From: a virus
DNA length: 64,000 bases
IMG/VR virus record: IMGVR_UViG_3300020419_000005
Direction: 5' to 3' (one strand)
Positions within the stretch are counted from its first letter, which is position 1. Each line of letters opens with the position of its first letter. Positions 1 to 57,125 of the stretch are shown here, piece after piece. A program made the translations under genes and the position numbers. The notes below the pieces were generated by a model. That model was given only the letters and a program-made list of their open reading frames with translations, was not told where the DNA came from and did not search any database.

Positions 1-66
1 AGGACCTGCTAATACAGGTGCTGAGAATGCAGAGACTGCTGCTACTGCTAAGAGTGATTTAATCAT
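1..66 (-). CDS. 5' end (partial) of a secreted protein, probably a cyanophage outer-membrane-type protein
   Basis: ATG at 66 reads MIKSLLAVAAVSAFSAPVLAGP to the window edge, a classic Sec signal peptide. Not in the ORF track. Confidence 0.7.
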   Translation of the reverse strand, partial: MIKSLLAVAAVSAFSAPVLAGP

Positions 67-77
67 TTTTGTTTTTA

Positions 78-166
78 ATTTCTCGCAAGAAAAATCCTGC
101 GGATGGAAAATCTTTCGACAAGACTTTTGCATTCGACGCAGGGTTACGATCTTTCGAGTCCTTTGT
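78..166 (-). ncRNA. structured 5' leader, candidate cis-regulatory RNA
   Basis: Lies between a sigma70 promoter and the ATG at 66. Stems CCUGCG/CGCAGG, inner hairpin AAAAGUCUU-GUCGA-AAGAUUUU, and an alternative CGCAGGA/UCUUGCG. Confidence 0.55.
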
Positions 167-844: not shown

Positions 845-1351
845 ATGAAGAAACTAGCGTTCGTTATAATTATGGGATTAGTGGGTGCTCCATTATCTGC
901 AAGGGCAGATTTGACACATAAAATGACTAGCAGTGTACAATTAAATGTTAACGCAGCAGCAACACAGGTTAATCGTATTGGTACTACATACAGTATCTCA
1001 GGAAATAACATAGGTACAACATACGGTACAGGTAGCGATGCTATAACCAATGGTATTGGTGCTTTGACAGTCTCATCAGGCGTTGGTGCGGTACCTGCGA
1101 TTACAGCGACCCAGGCAGTTGCAGGGGAAAGTTTCTCGCTATCTCAGTCATTCACCGAAGGCGATGCTTTAGCAAGCAGTGTTACAACAGGTGCTGTGTC
1201 ACCATATGGTAATCAGGTATCTACAGCAGCAGGAACCGCAGGTACATTAGCAGGTACAATCGATTCTTCCTCAACAATGACACTAACTGGTGGAGGAGCA
1301 GGTACTCAGGCAACTGGTCAATTTACAGTTGAATTAAGTATTAATCATTAA
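845..1351 (+). CDS. secreted Gly/Thr/Ser-rich beta protein, hypothetical
   Basis: Signal peptide ending ARA|D, beta-strand pattern, downstream of a late promoter. Confidence 0.85.
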   Translation: MKKLAFVIIMGLVGAPLSARADLTHKMTSSVQLNVNAAATQVNRIGTTYSISGNNIGTTYGTGSDAITNGIGALTVSSGVGAVPAITATQAVAGESFSLSQSFTEGDALASSVTTGAVSPYGNQVSTAAGTAGTLAGTIDSSSTMTLTGGGAGTQATGQFTVELSINH

Positions 1352-1363
1352 TACCTATATAAT

Positions 1364-1807
1364 ATGAAACGTGTATGGTACATATGTGGCATTGCGACGA
1401 TGACTTTGGGCGTAACCCCAGTCATAGCAGTGCCTGTGGTGCCAAATTTTTCTCAAGGATCGATGTCTAGCCACACGGAAACGACTTCTACGGTGGTGGA
1501 GACCATAAATTCGATGGATTATGCGACAGGTTGGCAGTATTCTATAAGTGGGACTAACATTTCTCACGATGGGACAACCTTATCACCAGGCACAGCGACT
1601 GGTTCATCTAATACTATTAATGGAGTGACTTCGCAATGGCAAAATCTAGACCATTCAAACAAACCAAACTACACGATAACAACCCCAGGAGCAGCGTTCC
1701 AGTTCACGGAGACGTACAAATCCCCAGGATTAACGAATCACACAATAATACAAAGAGAAACAACAATACAATCGGTCACAGATACGCAAAGTATATTTCA
1801 ACAATAA
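1364..1807 (+). CDS. secreted beta-rich protein, probable paralog of 845-1351
   Basis: Signal peptide ending VIA|V. Shares YSISGxNI and G-x-x-F-x-[LF]-[ST]-[QE]-[ST]-[FY] with the upstream protein. Confidence 0.85.
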   Translation: MKRVWYICGIATMTLGVTPVIAVPVVPNFSQGSMSSHTETTSTVVETINSMDYATGWQYSISGTNISHDGTTLSPGTATGSSNTINGVTSQWQNLDHSNKPNYTITTPGAAFQFTETYKSPGLTNHTIIQRETTIQSVTDTQSIFQQ

Positions 1808-2514
1808 TAGCAACAGTTCTCACTGCTAACGCTCTACCTATGCGTGCAGAGACCGTTGGTGGTGTGTCAGCAACAGCATCGCCAATCGCAAATTCCAGTG
1901 GTTCAGTGACCAATCAAGCTATACAGGTTTTACAGGGTCCATATATAACTAATACTTATGGAAATGGCATACAGTGTCAAGGTCCAACGTTAAACTTCAC
2001 ACCATATGTCACAGGGAGTACATCTATACAGCGTCCCTACGAACCTCTATGGTATGACCAAGTGTATGATATGCGTGACTTGACTGGTACTACAGATGCA
2101 ACTGGTGCTGTTACAGGAGATGGTGCACCAGACAATCCAGGTGTTGTATTATATGAAGTTCCAGTAAGAACAGGTCAGAAAGATAATCATTCTCTATCAA
2201 TAGGTTTTAGTGCAACGTGGTCTAAACCATTAGATAAGAAACTACAAGAGTTATGTAAGACAGCAGCAGTCACACAAGTTGCATATCAACAACAACTCAC
2301 TGCCAATAAGCGATTAGACTTTGAGATCGCGAGACTTAAAAATTGTGGTGAATTAATGAAGGCAGGAATAATGTTCCATAAAAATTCACCTTACTATGGT
2401 GTATGTGCTGACGTGGTTCTATTGAATCCTCCTGGAGTTCTTCCAAACCACAAGCATTCAATACCAAGCAATAATGCTGAACTGTTGAAAGATATATCTA
2501 TCGGTAATCCTTAG
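1636..2514 (+). CDS. secreted protein with amphipathic beta-hairpin and coiled coil; true start uncertain (about 1771-1840)
   Basis: Signal-like YAKYISTIIATVLTANALPMRA|E, strands GPTLNFTPYV and SLSIGFSATWSKPLD followed by a helix, 4 Cys. Confidence 0.8.
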   Translation: MAKSRPFKQTKLHDNNPRSSVPVHGDVQIPRINESHNNTKRNNNTIGHRYAKYISTIIATVLTANALPMRAETVGGVSATASPIANSSGSVTNQAIQVLQGPYITNTYGNGIQCQGPTLNFTPYVTGSTSIQRPYEPLWYDQVYDMRDLTGTTDATGAVTGDGAPDNPGVVLYEVPVRTGQKDNHSLSIGFSATWSKPLDKKLQELCKTAAVTQVAYQQQLTANKRLDFEIARLKNCGELMKAGIMFHKNSPYYGVCADVVLLNPPGVLPNHKHSIPSNNAELLKDISIGNP

Positions 2515-3256
2515 TTTTAAATGGGGGCAAACCTTTCTTTGCCCTATACTCATTAGCAATCACATCATTACGAGTTAGTTTGGTAGGTTTCTTACCTAAC
2601 TTTTTTTGTATAGTAGTGGTTGCTTTTTTAATGAGTGGTTTTATAACTCTTAGAAGTAAAGGTGTTGCTGCTGCTGATGCGGTTGCAACTACAGCAATCG
2701 CTGCTGTTACTGATGCTTGATTTGTAGACGGTAAAAATTTTTCAACTGCATTAGTAGGTTCATATAATACCACACAGATATTGTTTTGAACTTCGTGACC
2801 TATAACTTTCTCATCACCTTTCTGAGTTAGATCACCTACTCTAGGTTGATTAGGTGCAGGACATTCTATCTCCTTTTCTGTAGGAGGTATTTCTGGCGGT
2901 GTTACTTCTGGGGTTTCTAGTTCTGGAGGTGCTACTACATCTGGAACTACAGTCTCCTGTTCAAATACTAGATCCTCTTCTCTATAATCTATAGTTTCAA
3001 AGGATGGCATTCCTGCATCACAATATGTGAGAGTACCATCAGGATCATCTTCTTTTATATTTTTATTATTTTTACTGAGTTCGTGTGCCTTAACACAACC
3101 TGGAATGTTTACAACAGGTGTTCCTAGTTCTATTGTTACAGGGACCTGTGGAGACAACTGCCACGCAGGGACTGTCATCCAAGAAGGTGTTGGAGTTGTA
3201 GAAGGGTTAGGTACAAAGAGATCATTAATAATAATATTAGGAATCTCTGGTGGCAT
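2498..3256 (-). CDS. Pro-rich protein with Cys pairs and C-terminal membrane anchor, hypothetical
   Basis: Pro/Glu-rich linker, hydrophobic ASVTAAIAVVATASAAATPLLL followed by a basic tail. Confidence 0.8.
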   Translation of the reverse strand: MPPEIPNIIINDLFVPNPSTTPTPSWMTVPAWQLSPQVPVTIELGTPVVNIPGCVKAHELSKNNKNIKEDDPDGTLTYCDAGMPSFETIDYREEDLVFEQETVVPDVVAPPELETPEVTPPEIPPTEKEIECPAPNQPRVGDLTQKGDEKVIGHEVQNNICVVLYEPTNAVEKFLPSTNQASVTAAIAVVATASAAATPLLLRVIKPLIKKATTTIQKKLGKKPTKLTRNDVIANEYRAKKGLPPFKTKDYR

Positions 3257-3480
3257 TATGGAAGTAATCCTTTAGGTGCTTGAGGCATTACAGATCCTGT
3301 TACGTCAGGAAGTGCTTGATCCATTACGTTTGGAAGAGACCCTGTAACAGATTCCATAACCTTAGATTTAATTCCATCAATGATTGATGCCTTGTTGACA
3401 AAAACGTATATCCCAGTACCGACAACGGCACCAGATATAACGAAAGACGAAATAGCGAGTACATTAATGATCTTTTGCAT
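3256..3480 (-). CDS. small single-TM membrane protein
   Basis: MQKIINVLAISSFVISGAVVGTGIYVF hydrophobic N-terminus; stop overlaps the next start. Confidence 0.75.
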   Translation of the reverse strand: MQKIINVLAISSFVISGAVVGTGIYVFVNKASIIDGIKSKVMESVTGSLPNVMDQALPDVTGSVMPQAPKGLLP

Positions 3481-3787
3481 TGTAATTAATTTCAAAGTTG
3501 TTTAAACCCTTCACTTCAGAAGGTGAACTATTTATCACTCCAAACTGTTCACGTTCTTCAGCATCCCAGTCTTCTTTAATCTGTTCTACCTGTTTATCCA
3601 CGTCTTCCATTGTGTTCTCTATCTTCTGCTCTATCCATTCTTCTTTAAGATATGCTACAAGACCTAGTAAAAGATGATTGATAGGAAACCTTTGTTTCTT
3701 TGCCCATCTTTCCATCTTGGCATACCAAGGATCTACTCCTTTCCCAAATTGTTTTTCAAATTTAAATAACGTCTTTTTCTTTTCCAT
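3464..3787 (-). CDS. hypothetical protein
   Basis: ORF in a tightly packed operon, likely start MEKKK at 3787. Confidence 0.6.
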   Translation of the reverse strand: MEKKKTLFKFEKQFGKGVDPWYAKMERWAKKQRFPINHLLLGLVAYLKEEWIEQKIENTMEDVDKQVEQIKEDWDAEEREQFGVINSSPSEVKGLNNFEINYNAKDH

Positions 3788-4053
3788 CTCGGTAAATAAA
3801 ATACTACGAAAGAACCAATCCAAAAAATTGCTAGTGCTGATATGTGTATCAGTCTATTAGAATTTACTATCAGACCAAGTGTTACAAGTCCGATCCAAGT
3901 ATAATCTAACGTACCGTGAAGACGATACCACAGTTTGTCTCCCAATTTGTTAATGACTCTTTCTCTTTGTTTTGCGAACCACGGTGACACGTGACGCATC
4001 ATCACGAATCCTTCGTTGAAGAACATTATAAAAAAACCAATCCAGAATATCAT
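3733..4053 (-). CDS. multi-TM membrane protein, hypothetical
   Basis: About three hydrophobic segments, basic C-terminus, ATGA overlap with the upstream gene. Confidence 0.75.
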   Translation of the reverse strand: MIFWIGFFIMFFNEGFVMMRHVSPWFAKQRERVINKLGDKLWYRLHGTLDYTWIGLVTLGLIVNSNRLIHISALAIFWIGSFVVFYLPRWKRKRRYLNLKNNLGKE

Positions 4054-4241
4054 TTGATTAACTCTGACTCATCGATTGCTTCTCTAATTATTCTCTTGAG
4101 TTGTTTTGATTGCTTCTGGTTGATAGAACCAAACTTATTGTCTATCCATTTCTTACCATAGTAAAATACAAATAGAACTGCGAGTAAAGCAAAACCTTCA
4201 CCCCAATCTAGACTCCACGCCCATTCAAAAAATTTCCACAT
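4050..4241 (-). CDS. small single-TM membrane protein
   Basis: GFALLAVLFVFYY TM followed by a basic segment. Confidence 0.7.
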   Translation of the reverse strand: MWKFFEWAWSLDWGEGFALLAVLFVFYYGKKWIDNKFGSINQKQSKQLKRIIREAIDESELIK

Positions 4242-4250
4242 AATTTTTTC

Positions 4251-4793
4251 CTAACAATTTTTATTTAGGTCCTCTGCCATATTGCCACCAATGTTTGCAC
4301 CTTGTTCGCCACCGAACATCGCTACCCAACCTGCTGCAACCCAACCAATAAAGGGAATGCCACTAAGAGCAGGAGCAGCAGATGCACCAACGCTAGTGCC
4401 TACAAGTCTTCCAGTTCCTTTTGCAGCACCGACCGCTTCGATACACGCTTCGCTTTTGTTACTGGCAACAGGGTCTGTTTGACCTTGTTGAAATTTTTGT
4501 ATATGTACATCTCCGTCCATTGTATATTCTTCTACTATCTCTTTAGTCTCATTCGCTAATCCTAAGAAACCACCTTTCTCATTGATCTTAGATGTCTTAT
4601 ACATTGTCTTTGGATCATTTCCAACGTAACTCATCTTGTATCCATTTTTATCTGCGGATACAACGTATGATGTATAAGGAGTTACAACAGGTGGATGTAT
4701 GACAGGATAAGTTTTCCTAGATGCTATCATACCAATCATCCCTATATGGGATACACCCAATAAGGCACCTAGACCTAGACTAAACCATTTCAT
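4251..4793 (-). CDS. membrane protein with N-terminal TM and C-terminal glycine zipper
   Basis: GxxxG repeats GRLVGTSVGASAA...GIPFIGWVAAGWVAMFGG, two Cys. Confidence 0.8.
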   Translation of the reverse strand: MKWFSLGLGALLGVSHIGMIGMIASRKTYPVIHPPVVTPYTSYVVSADKNGYKMSYVGNDPKTMYKTSKINEKGGFLGLANETKEIVEEYTMDGDVHIQKFQQGQTDPVASNKSEACIEAVGAAKGTGRLVGTSVGASAAPALSGIPFIGWVAAGWVAMFGGEQGANIGGNMAEDLNKNC

Positions 4794-5206
4794 TTCTTAT
4801 CATCCCCAACTATTTTAAATGCAGGTGACTCTATTCTTATAGTCTGACCTGGAGCAACGTTTGATGCTTTCTCAATCAAGAACTCCATATCTTTCTTGGT
4901 AATCTGTGGTGCAGCAGATGCGTCACCATTCTTTTTCTTACCTCCTGCGGAGACACCAAAGGTCGCTAAAACTCCTGTGAAGACCGAAGCTATGAAAGTT
5001 GGATCCATATCTTGTTTAGGAATTTTAAGTGCTGATGGCAACTCAACATACGCTAATGTTAATATTCCACCTGCCCAAACCAAAATTCCAAGACGAACAA
5101 ATGTACTAAGAATAGCGAGTTGTTCTTCCTTATCTTCTGTCGCTTCTTTCAGTTTACCGAGGAGACCTTTCTTTTTAGGTTCTTCTTTTTTAACTGCTTC
5201 TGCCAT
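4790..5206 (-). CDS. two-TM membrane protein (holin-like topology)
   Basis: Charged N-terminus, TMs FVRLGILVWAGGILTLAYV and FIASVFTGVLATFGV, charged C-terminus. CTAAATA late-like element at 5235-5229. Confidence 0.75.
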   Translation of the reverse strand: MAEAVKKEEPKKKGLLGKLKEATEDKEEQLAILSTFVRLGILVWAGGILTLAYVELPSALKIPKQDMDPTFIASVFTGVLATFGVSAGGKKKNGDASAAPQITKKDMEFLIEKASNVAPGQTIRIESPAFKIVGDDKK

Positions 5207-26131: not shown

Positions 26132-26171
26132 TTGTGTCTCCTTGTTAACTTTAATACAGTTTTCTAACAAT

Positions 26172-26179
26172 TATTTATA
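26172..26179 (-). promoter_or_regulatory. T4 late promoter TATAAATA
   Basis: Perfect match upstream of gp22. Confidence 0.8.
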
Positions 26180-47900: not shown

Positions 47901-47908
47901 TATTTATA
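47901..47908 (-). promoter_or_regulatory. T4 late promoter TATAAATA
   Basis: Perfect match about 30 nt upstream of the fibre gene. Confidence 0.8.
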
Positions 47909-57117: not shown

Positions 57118-57125
57118 TATTTATA
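57118..57125 (-). promoter_or_regulatory. T4 late promoter TATAAATA
   Basis: Perfect match upstream of gp8. Confidence 0.8.

Follow-up and report, generated by a model that had tools for sequence, protein, structure and literature searches.

The trio and its position in the genome

We analyzed a window of 64,000 nucleotides (nt), the whole stretch taken from IMG/VR virus record IMGVR_UViG_3300020419_000005, with a focus on three genes, ORF1, ORF2 and ORF3, whose products are putatively exported and which belong to a cassette with a possible role in host lysis. The window derives from a T4-like cyanomyovirus (Kyanoviridae-like); it contains hsp20, regA, clamp loader and large structural genes, of which almost all are encoded on the - strand, and its closest relatives are Prochlorococcus and Synechococcus myoviruses. 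A first-pass annotation, made from the letters alone, had singled out the trio as the only counter-oriented genes; a greedy pick of non-overlapping open reading frames (ORFs) bore this out, since ORF1 to ORF3 are the sole + strand genes in the 64 kb. The features of the trio are as follows:

807–814, + strand: predicted T4-type late promoter element TATAAATA, 31 nt ahead of the ORF1 ATG
845–1351, + strand: ORF1, 168 amino acids (aa); Syn9 gp167, T4-GC 237, phrog_564; predicted distant DUF6322 paralog of ORF2
1364–1807, + strand: ORF2, 147 aa; DUF6322 (PF19847), Syn9 gp166, T4-GC 236, phrog_650
1636–2514, + strand: ORF3, 292-aa precursor; Syn9 gp165 family, T4-GC 235, phrog_848
1636–1807, + strand: dual-coding stretch, with ORF3 codons 1–57 in the -1 (+2) frame of the last 57 ORF2 codons
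2236–2361, + strand: long helix predicted in ORF3 (residues 201–242; 42 residues, preceded by strands; predicted local distance difference test, pLDDT, about 68–78)

The T4-GC cluster numbers are those of Sullivan 2010, in which the convergent neighbor at 2498–3256 is T4-GC 234. The clusters T4-GC 237/236/235(/234) correspond to Syn9 gp167/gp166/gp165, which are direct homologs of the genes in the window, with identical gene order and orientation beside hsp20 and no structural difference.

ORF1 and ORF2 as DUF6322 paralogs

ORF2 scored 135.8 bits against DUF6322 (PF19847; E 8e-40), above the Pfam gathering score of 30.6, and is thus a member of this family. ORF1 from the window did not match the DUF6322 model (version 4); 24 of 51 ORF1 relatives did, with a best E of 8.8e-5, and the Atlas clusters carry PF19847 in 100% of their members. 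Direct comparison of ORF1 with ORF2 by BLASTP (E 0.012) aligned the very motifs that had been flagged as shared in the first-pass annotation, and hhalign gave a probability of 94.9% (E 4e-8). These motifs therefore reflect real homology, and we consider ORF1, as judged from these profiles, a distant DUF6322 member and a paralog of ORF2. Thr, Ser, Gly, Ala, Asn and Gln add up to 58–67% of both proteins, with 4–8% of aromatic residues; mature ORF1 is rich in Thr, Ser, Gly and Ala and contains no Cys, and mature ORF2 is polar and beta-rich.

Pfam and NCBIfam searches with the trio returned nothing besides DUF6322, and an Atlas search retrieved only the proteins' own families. The families T4-GC 237/236/235(/234), DUF6322 and PHROGs 564, 650, 848 and 570 are all without an assigned function; some ORF1 homologs are labeled 'OMP1 protein', a name for which we found no support.

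A predicted start of ORF3 inside ORF2

We recognized the gp165 family (phrog_848, T4-GC 235) by a full-length profile match, four conserved Cys and a signal core followed by an ETVGGVS-type mature end, and ORF3 shows all of them, with a match to phrog_848 across residues 7–283 (E 1.4e-126). Its start had been placed only loosely in the first-pass annotation and is corrected here to the ATG at 1636, inside ORF2. ORF3 was in the -1 (+2) frame of ORF2 in all 62 distinct related loci, with the frame open for 172–271 nt (mostly 181–196) upstream of the ORF2 stop and the ATG located 163–169 nt ahead of it; in most of these loci there was no other canonical start before the ORF3 signal core. The overlap contained no stops in 3381 codons, as compared with 5.5–8.6 stops per 100 codons in the same frame elsewhere, and when synonymous codons were redrawn keeping the ORF2 protein, the ORF3 frame stayed open in only about 3% of the trials per sequence. 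The A of the ORF3 ATG is the third base of an ORF2 codon, and its TG comes from the next codon, that of the invariant Trp92; the codon preceding this Trp (TCA, AAA, ACA, CAA or AGA) ended in A in 51 of 51 sequences. Additionally, the synonymous entropy of ORF2 was lower in the overlap (1.11 vs. 1.34, p 0.005), and a GGAG or GGGG sequence occurs around 10 nt upstream of the ATG.

The constant -1 frame, and the absence in most genomes of a canonical start close to the signal core, could also be explained if programmed -1 frameshifting produced ORF3 as a fusion with ORF2. We deem this very improbable and rejected it: a heptamer of the X XXY YYZ type was present in the overlap of only 5 of the 62 loci, in no case at a conserved position; the open frame closes shortly upstream of the conserved ATG, which is kept by third-base choice in 51 of 51 sequences and is preceded by the GGAG/GGGG motif; and a fusion would bury the signal core and the AXA site within an already exported protein. 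Therefore, the open overlapping frame, the conserved ATG, the reduced synonymous variation of ORF2 and the lack of a conserved slippery heptamer delimit ORF3 as 1636–2514, predicted to be translated from its own ATG embedded in the 3' end of ORF2.

NATL1A-7 and P-SSP7, which are T7-like, preserve the -1 overlap as well; in the latter, ORF3 likely starts not at the Trp-codon ATG but at a GTG located 112 nt ahead of the ORF2 stop. Several database records omit ORF2 or begin ORF3 at a downstream Met. Thus, the homologs S-TIM5 gp062 (positions 4627–5202 of our locus L084) and P-SSP7_045 (L103, 3079–3534) are annotated from a downstream Met, losing the signal peptide and the conserved mature N-terminus, and in both the frame runs upstream into ORF2. 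Likewise, ORF2 homologs with clear signal peptides are unannotated in GenBank in NATL1A-7 (L087, 3752–4123), where the annotated 'gp165' ORF is drawn over the ORF2 homolog in another frame, and in S-SKS1 (L085, around 4004–4447).

The overlap endows ORF3 with an N-terminal extension of around 50 residues ahead of its signal core, strongly basic (on average 10.4 K+R vs. 3.1 D+E), much of whose sequence may be dictated by ORF2. At the other side of the signal, the N-terminal beta region of mature ORF3 contains around 50 consecutive residues that are invariant among sequences only about 60% identical overall. Synonymous variation in this stretch is high (normalized entropy 0.8–0.9), which indicates that the constraint is on the protein rather than on the DNA or RNA, and the conservation suggests, at the sequence level, a conserved partner or substrate. 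Some ORF3 homologs (alignment columns 300–384; loci L037, L056 and L063) extend at the C-terminus into a long tail rich in Ser and Gln, with the conserved motif ...EDRQAVLRA.Q..QQQ at its end; this tail is missing from the protein in the window. A possible HxH metal site was discarded as a family feature because it is missing from the T7-like homologs.

Signal peptides and conserved cysteines

We assessed signal peptides by eye and by their conservation across around 60 homologs, taking as marks of a Sec (type I) signal a positive n-region, a hydrophobic core of 10–16 residues and small residues at positions -3 and -1. The signals that the first-pass annotation had attributed to the three proteins were found in ORF1, ORF2 and ORF3, conserved before invariant mature N-termini. 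ORF1 (signal peptide 845–907, MKKLAFVIIMGLVGAPLSARA followed by DLTHK) and ORF2 (1364–1429, ending in VTPVIA and followed by VPVVPNF) show a charged n-region (MKK or MKR), a hydrophobic core and an AXA site; the mature N-terminus of their homologs is GGLV or DLTHK for ORF1 and invariably VPVVPNF for ORF2. In ORF3, a short core and an AXA site precede ETVGGVSAT, and the start is unusual; cleavage is predicted after Ala71 (base 1848), with the mature protein starting at 1849, and the protein from the window has an unusual Met at position -3 of the cleavage site. A twin-arginine translocation (Tat) signal was discarded for ORF3, since the RR found in some of the N-terminal extensions is not conserved.

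The extended signal peptide regions (ESPRs) of autotransporters and two-partner secretion proteins likewise consist of a long N-terminal extension before an ordinary signal core and cleavage site. ORF3, however, does not contain an ESPR motif or Pfam match and, unlike ESPRs, its extension of about 50 residues is strongly basic and lies within the coding sequence of another gene.

The four Cys of ORF3 (C114, C207, C237 and C257) are invariant even in relatives of around 30% identity, which fits an oxidizing compartment, and they probably form two disulfides. Taken with the conserved signal peptides, these residues suggest that the trio is almost certainly exported from the host cytoplasm, as had been proposed.

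Predicted late promoter and timing of expression

T4-type late promoters were sought as TATAAATA around 25–35 nt before a start codon, a -35 element not being needed, and one is predicted at 807–814. The element sits within the palindrome TATTTATAAATA (803–814), so that TATAAATA is found on either strand, facing the trio in one direction and hsp20 in the other; hsp20 is also faced by a sigma70-like TTGAAA-17-TATATT sequence (839–811, - strand). The number of TATAAATA sites in the window is not above chance (five observed vs. 6.6 expected), and all five are intergenic, each pointing at a gene. Three further sites on the - strand (26172–26179, 47901–47908 and 57118–57125) immediately precede - strand genes starting at 26170, 47870 and 57095, where late promoters of structural genes would be expected. 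Of 61 related loci, 57 have a late-type element, (C/A)TAAATA, 8–45 nt ahead of ORF1, as opposed to 1% of random windows.

Its proposed late expression also holds, as late or mid-late, from this element and from the transcriptome classes of phage P-HM2 (Thompson 2016, PMC5082946, S1 table). In this phage, the homologs of ORF1 (PHM2_197) and ORF4, a neighboring gene described below, belong to classes Late(E) and Late(D), respectively, the homolog of ORF2 (PHM2_196) is Late(D) in the light and Mid(C) in the dark, and that of ORF3 (PHM2_195) is Mid(C).

Neighboring genes and distribution of the cassette

The genes flanking the trio in the window include several for small or membrane proteins with one (1-TM) or two (2-TM) transmembrane segments:

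221–727, - strand: hsp20, divergent neighbor, also adjacent to the trio in S-TIM5 and many T4-like cyanophages
2498–3256, - strand: ORF4, 252 aa, T4-GC 234, phrog_570; converges on ORF3 with a 17-nt overlap
3256–3495, - strand: small 1-TM protein, phrog_568, annotated as 'plasmid stability'; cassette member also present in S-SKS1 and P-HS2
4251–4793, - strand: glycine-zipper membrane protein, phrog_605, T4-GC 219; neighbor in T4-like cyanophages
4790–5206, - strand: 2-TM DUF6450 protein, PF20048, phrog_2714/721, T4-GC 218

ORF4 is a Cys-containing protein rich in Pro and Glu, with a basic tail and a hydrophobic segment in which Ala abounds. The gene is always adjacent to the trio and usually convergent with it, but is on the same strand in P-SSM3, P-SSM4 and S-TIM4, a one-gene local inversion inside the conserved cassette. 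On the far side of hsp20, the window edge truncates a gene for a small secreted protein, whose 5' part occupies positions 1–132 (- strand); the DNA of this gene matches a P-HM1 gene annotated as a DUF680 domain-containing protein.

The first-pass annotation had put forward co-occurrence of the three genes in other genomes as a check, and this was borne out: the trio is syntenic in every related IMG/VR locus with enough flanking sequence, each time with ORF4 adjacent, as well as in unrelated types of cyanophages. ORF1, ORF3 and ORF4 each matched around 400–410 phage records, all of them from cyanophages, and a podovirus ORF3 used as query matched 455 records, around 45 of them T7-like and again all from cyanophages. 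S-TIM5, from a different myovirus lineage, contains hsp20, ORF1, ORF2, ORF3 and ORF4; the 208-kb siphovirus S-SKS1 contains ORF1, an unannotated ORF2, ORF3, ORF4 and the small 'plasmid stability' protein; and the 38-kb Prochlorococcus siphovirus P-HS2 has DUF6450, ORF1, ORF2, ORF3, ORF4 and the small protein. The T7-like podoviruses have a single DUF6322 gene and no ORF1. In NATL1A-7, the region from the tail fiber to the small terminase gene encodes a mini ORF4-like protein, DUF6450 and homologs of ORF2 (profile E 1.6e-9) and ORF3 (blastp 2e-20, profile 5.9e-17); the order in P-SSP7 (PSSP7_042 to 047) and NATL1A-7 is tail fiber, 1-TM, 2-TM DUF6450, ORF2, ORF3, a small ORF and small terminase. 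The DUF6450 gene immediately precedes ORF1 in P-HS2 and ORF2 in the T7-like cyanophages, and by its position the product is a holin candidate.

In a set of 185,579 species genomes we found only 11 matching loci, under unrelated organism labels; we read these as phage contigs and not cellular genes. The cyanophage-like contigs carrying ORF3 were labeled as Formosa, Euryarchaeota, Lewinella, Nonlabens, Gammaproteobacteria, Chloroflexota and Prochlorococcus single cells. Their presence in such assemblies, for instance that of the 188-kb contig NZ_RMVE01000006.1 (Nonlabens xiamenensis 1Q3), looks like mis-binning or contamination, and contigs of around 190 kb labeled as a Prochlorococcus single-cell assembly and a Synechococcus metagenome-assembled genome may be infecting phages. 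By these sequence matches the trio is found only in phages, with no cellular homologs, and the cassette of predicted membrane and exported proteins is spread across unrelated cyanophage lineages. Both the export and the cassette membership of the trio are well supported and, in our judgment, very probably correct.

The predicted late promoter and the adjoining hsp20 gene might suggest that the trio encodes virion or assembly proteins of the phage particle. We find this hardly credible, given that the proteins have signal peptides and are common to myo-, sipho- and podoviruses with unrelated particles. Additionally, T4-GC 234–237 do not appear in the covered rows of the table of virion proteomes of S-SM1, S-PM2 and Syn9 (Sullivan 2010), and a whole-word search of that file gave no entry for 235 or 236. 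As far as these rows go, they agree with the first-pass annotation in that the trio is not part of the virion.

Predicted structure and the outer-membrane pore or tube

The AlphaFold2 models, built from 51-row alignments, were of low confidence for both ORF3 (pLDDT 49.7, predicted template modeling score, pTM, 0.26) and ORF2 (pLDDT 57.9, pTM 0.26). From the sequence, ORF1 and ORF2 had been described as having long strands at each mature terminus, and ORF3 as strands running into a long helix; the models contain 22-residue strands at both mature ends of ORF2 and the strand-to-helix order in ORF3, whose four Cys are invariant, but these arrangements are seen only at such low confidence (pLDDT 58 and 50, respectively). 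By inspection, the ORF3 helix, flanked by Cys207 and Cys237, follows a heptad-like pattern in which Asn224 occupies a core position; in the T7-like homologs the helix is exactly seven residues shorter, preserving the heptad register, and an acidic loop is missing. Complex prediction for mature ORF3 with mature ORF2 gave a score of 0.10 (mark 0.32), which is neither for nor against binding.

Searches for remote relatives were unrevealing. A sequence profile search of the PDB gave nothing for ORF3 and two chance-level rows for ORF2 (E 0.2 and 0.79), and a VIA-align fold search of the ORF2 model against 48,161 PDB chains retrieved nothing above Z 2.9, the hits being generic long hairpins. A profile search of 1.84 billion representatives produced 583 matches, of which the best 150 were all close cyanophage relatives; the longer proteins among those matches listed had no extra Pfam domain and provided no informative fusion.

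The first-pass annotation had interpreted the three proteins as subunits that co-assemble into an outer-membrane pore, a TolC-like channel or a surface tube. This would be in keeping with the very long beta hairpins of ORF2 and the strands into a long helix of ORF3, both from low-confidence models, with the invariable co-occurrence of the three genes, and with poor monomer models, which can indicate an obligate oligomer. However, none of 116 10-residue windows of ORF2 had an alternating face with a mean Kyte-Doolittle hydropathy of at least 2.0; aromatics amount to 4–8%; and the C-termini of the ORF1/ORF2 family end in Q, H or D and never in an aromatic residue, so that lipid-facing strands, aromatic girdles and the C-terminal aromatic of integral outer-membrane beta-barrels were not found. 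The polar, low-aromatic composition of ORF1 and ORF2, together with the lack of a lipid-facing face in ORF2, argues against integral outer-membrane barrels and against the analogy with TolC. The likeness to TolC-type outer membrane factors is limited to the strand-then-long-helix order in the low-confidence model. TolC has a repeat architecture of around 430 aa, with OEP repeats, a 12-strand trimeric barrel and long helical hairpins; mature ORF3, in contrast, is half that size (around 221 aa) and has one long helix instead of repeated helical hairpins, and no Pfam match to OEP (PF02321) was found at E up to 10 in 51 family members. No other outer-membrane family was matched in Pfam or NCBIfam either, and one DUF6322 protein suffices in the T7-like cyanophages. 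We thus abandoned the oligomeric barrel, pore or tube as the preferred interpretation and give it little credence.

A possible role in lysis

In phage T7, the holin gene 17.5 occupies a slot beside the terminase genes, and the spanin genes 18.5/18.7 are just past gene 18. The cassette of P-SSP7 and NATL1A-7 is located in what we take to be the gene 17.5 holin slot. This position, the neighboring 2-TM protein, the late timing and the spanin-like layout of overlapped genes are the reasons to propose a role of the cassette in lysis, which, resting on gene position and timing, we hold tentatively and with somewhat less than even confidence. Among the roles listed in the first-pass annotation (outer-membrane disruption, superinfection exclusion or release), gene position favors outer-membrane disruption.

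Overlapped gene pairs are typical of two-component spanins, such as lambda Rz/Rz1, T7 gp18.5/18.7 and T4 PseT.3/PseT.2. Similarly to these, ORF2 and ORF3 would be a periplasm-facing pair whose genes overlap in different frames; one of the partners has a coiled-coil-like helix and conserved Cys, expression is late, and the genes adjoin that of a small 2-TM membrane protein, at a position that in the podovirus relatives corresponds to the T7 lysis slot and from which the presumed lysis-cassette context derives. Conversely, there is no sequence or Pfam relationship with spanins; the two genes overlap at the 3' end of ORF2, with ORF3 in the -1 frame, and the shared stretch contributes no more than the signal-peptide extension to ORF3. 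Also, i-spanins have an uncleaved N-terminal transmembrane anchor (type II), whereas ORF2 and ORF3 have cores of around 13–16 residues and conserved AXA sites, a cleavable signal thus replacing the anchor in ORF2; o-spanins have a lipobox with a Cys at +1, whereas the residues following cleavage are D or G in ORF1, V in ORF2 and E in ORF3, with no Cys nearby, the latter having AXA-E instead of lipobox-Cys. ORF2 and ORF3 would therefore be, at most, functional analogs of spanins. More specifically, it is conceivable, although doubtful, that the overlapped ORF2/ORF3, plus ORF1 in larger phages, are a soluble, anchorless, cyanobacteria-specific outer-membrane-disrupting system.

The best overall explanation, to which we give not quite an even chance, is that the trio consists of exported, non-virion late proteins from a mobile cassette that breaches the envelope at lysis. 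According to this proposal, ORF1 to ORF3 would be made late in infection, exported through Sec and not incorporated into virions; ORF1 and ORF2 are polar, beta-rich paralogs, and ORF3 would combine a conserved beta region, a coiled-coil-like helix and two probable disulfides. The trio, the 2-TM DUF6450 protein, ORF4 and the small 1-TM protein would make up a cassette moving between unrelated cyanophage lineages, in which the start of ORF3, embedded in another frame of ORF2, would physically couple both genes. The site of action of the exported proteins would be the periplasm or the outer membrane, and the envelope-breaching steps of lysis would be the task of the cassette, with the overlapped ORF2/ORF3 pair standing in for a spanin with no lipoprotein or membrane anchors.

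Several observations weigh against this explanation. The middle, not late, expression of the ORF3 homolog in P-HM2 is one of them; also, we recognized no peptidoglycan hydrolase domain in the cassette, and the low-confidence models allow no fold assignment for ORF2 or ORF3 and thus lend it no fold support. By sequence, neither protein qualifies as a spanin, given the lack of a lipobox in ORF3 and of a stable membrane anchor in ORF2. The literature on Syn9 gp165, OMP1, DUF6322 and cyanophage lysis genes names no function and, in the papers we found, describes no experiment tying the cassette to lysis.

Furthermore, a cyanobacterial Sec signal can also lead to the thylakoid lumen and does not settle the compartment. 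The trio might hence encode host-physiology proteins for the thylakoid lumen or the periplasm, acting on photosynthetic membranes or nutrient uptake alongside hsp20. This would suit genes restricted to cyanophages with hsp20 as divergent neighbor in the window and in S-TIM5, particularly because Sec signals serve both membranes in cyanobacteria and exported phage auxiliary proteins, such as PstS, exist. Yet, unlike typical auxiliary metabolic genes, the trio has no host homologs; the auxiliary metabolic genes of P-HM2 are middle genes, whereas ORF1 is late; and the linkage to small membrane proteins beside the podovirus terminase does not fit either, which makes this alternative improbable.

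Another point against a lysis role is that ORF2, ORF3 and DUF6450 were not detectable in the lytic T4-like cyanophage S-PM2 (NC_006820), in agreement with an empty S-PM2 column for these clusters in the cluster table of Sullivan 2010. Their absence implies that the cassette is dispensable or replaceable, and S-PM2 may carry an analogous, unrelated module. Dispensability would be compatible with superinfection exclusion or receptor masking, in which the exported proteins would coat or block envelope receptors, sparing later phages or the released progeny from loss on infected cells or debris. Export, phage specificity and confinement to cyanophages agree with this role, and the invariant N-terminal region of ORF3 suggests binding to a conserved host component. 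Nevertheless, exclusion genes are usually early and lineage-specific, whereas the trio is late or mid-late; the same proteins occur in phages with different tails, and presumably different receptors; and the position in T7-like genomes is the lysis slot. Consequently, we view exclusion or masking as unlikely, and retain envelope breach at lysis as the preferred reading.

Marine cyanophages are among the most abundant viruses on Earth and, to our knowledge, the way in which they break through the envelope of their Prochlorococcus and Synechococcus hosts is yet to be elucidated; our literature search found no paper naming a marine cyanophage holin, spanin or equivalent. A compact cassette confined to cyanophages and present in T4-like, TIM5-like, sipho- and T7-like phages, with an exported core under very strong selection at the protein level, is a concrete and testable candidate for lysis, and engineering of T7-like cyanophages has become feasible. 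Dual coding is clearly exemplified by the ORF3 start within ORF2, which is deeply conserved and often misannotated because ORF2 is missed or ORF3 is made too short. Were the anchorless outer-membrane-disrupting system considered above to be real, the DUF6450/ORF4 cassette would fill a long-standing gap as the lysis machinery of marine cyanophages, whatever their morphotype.

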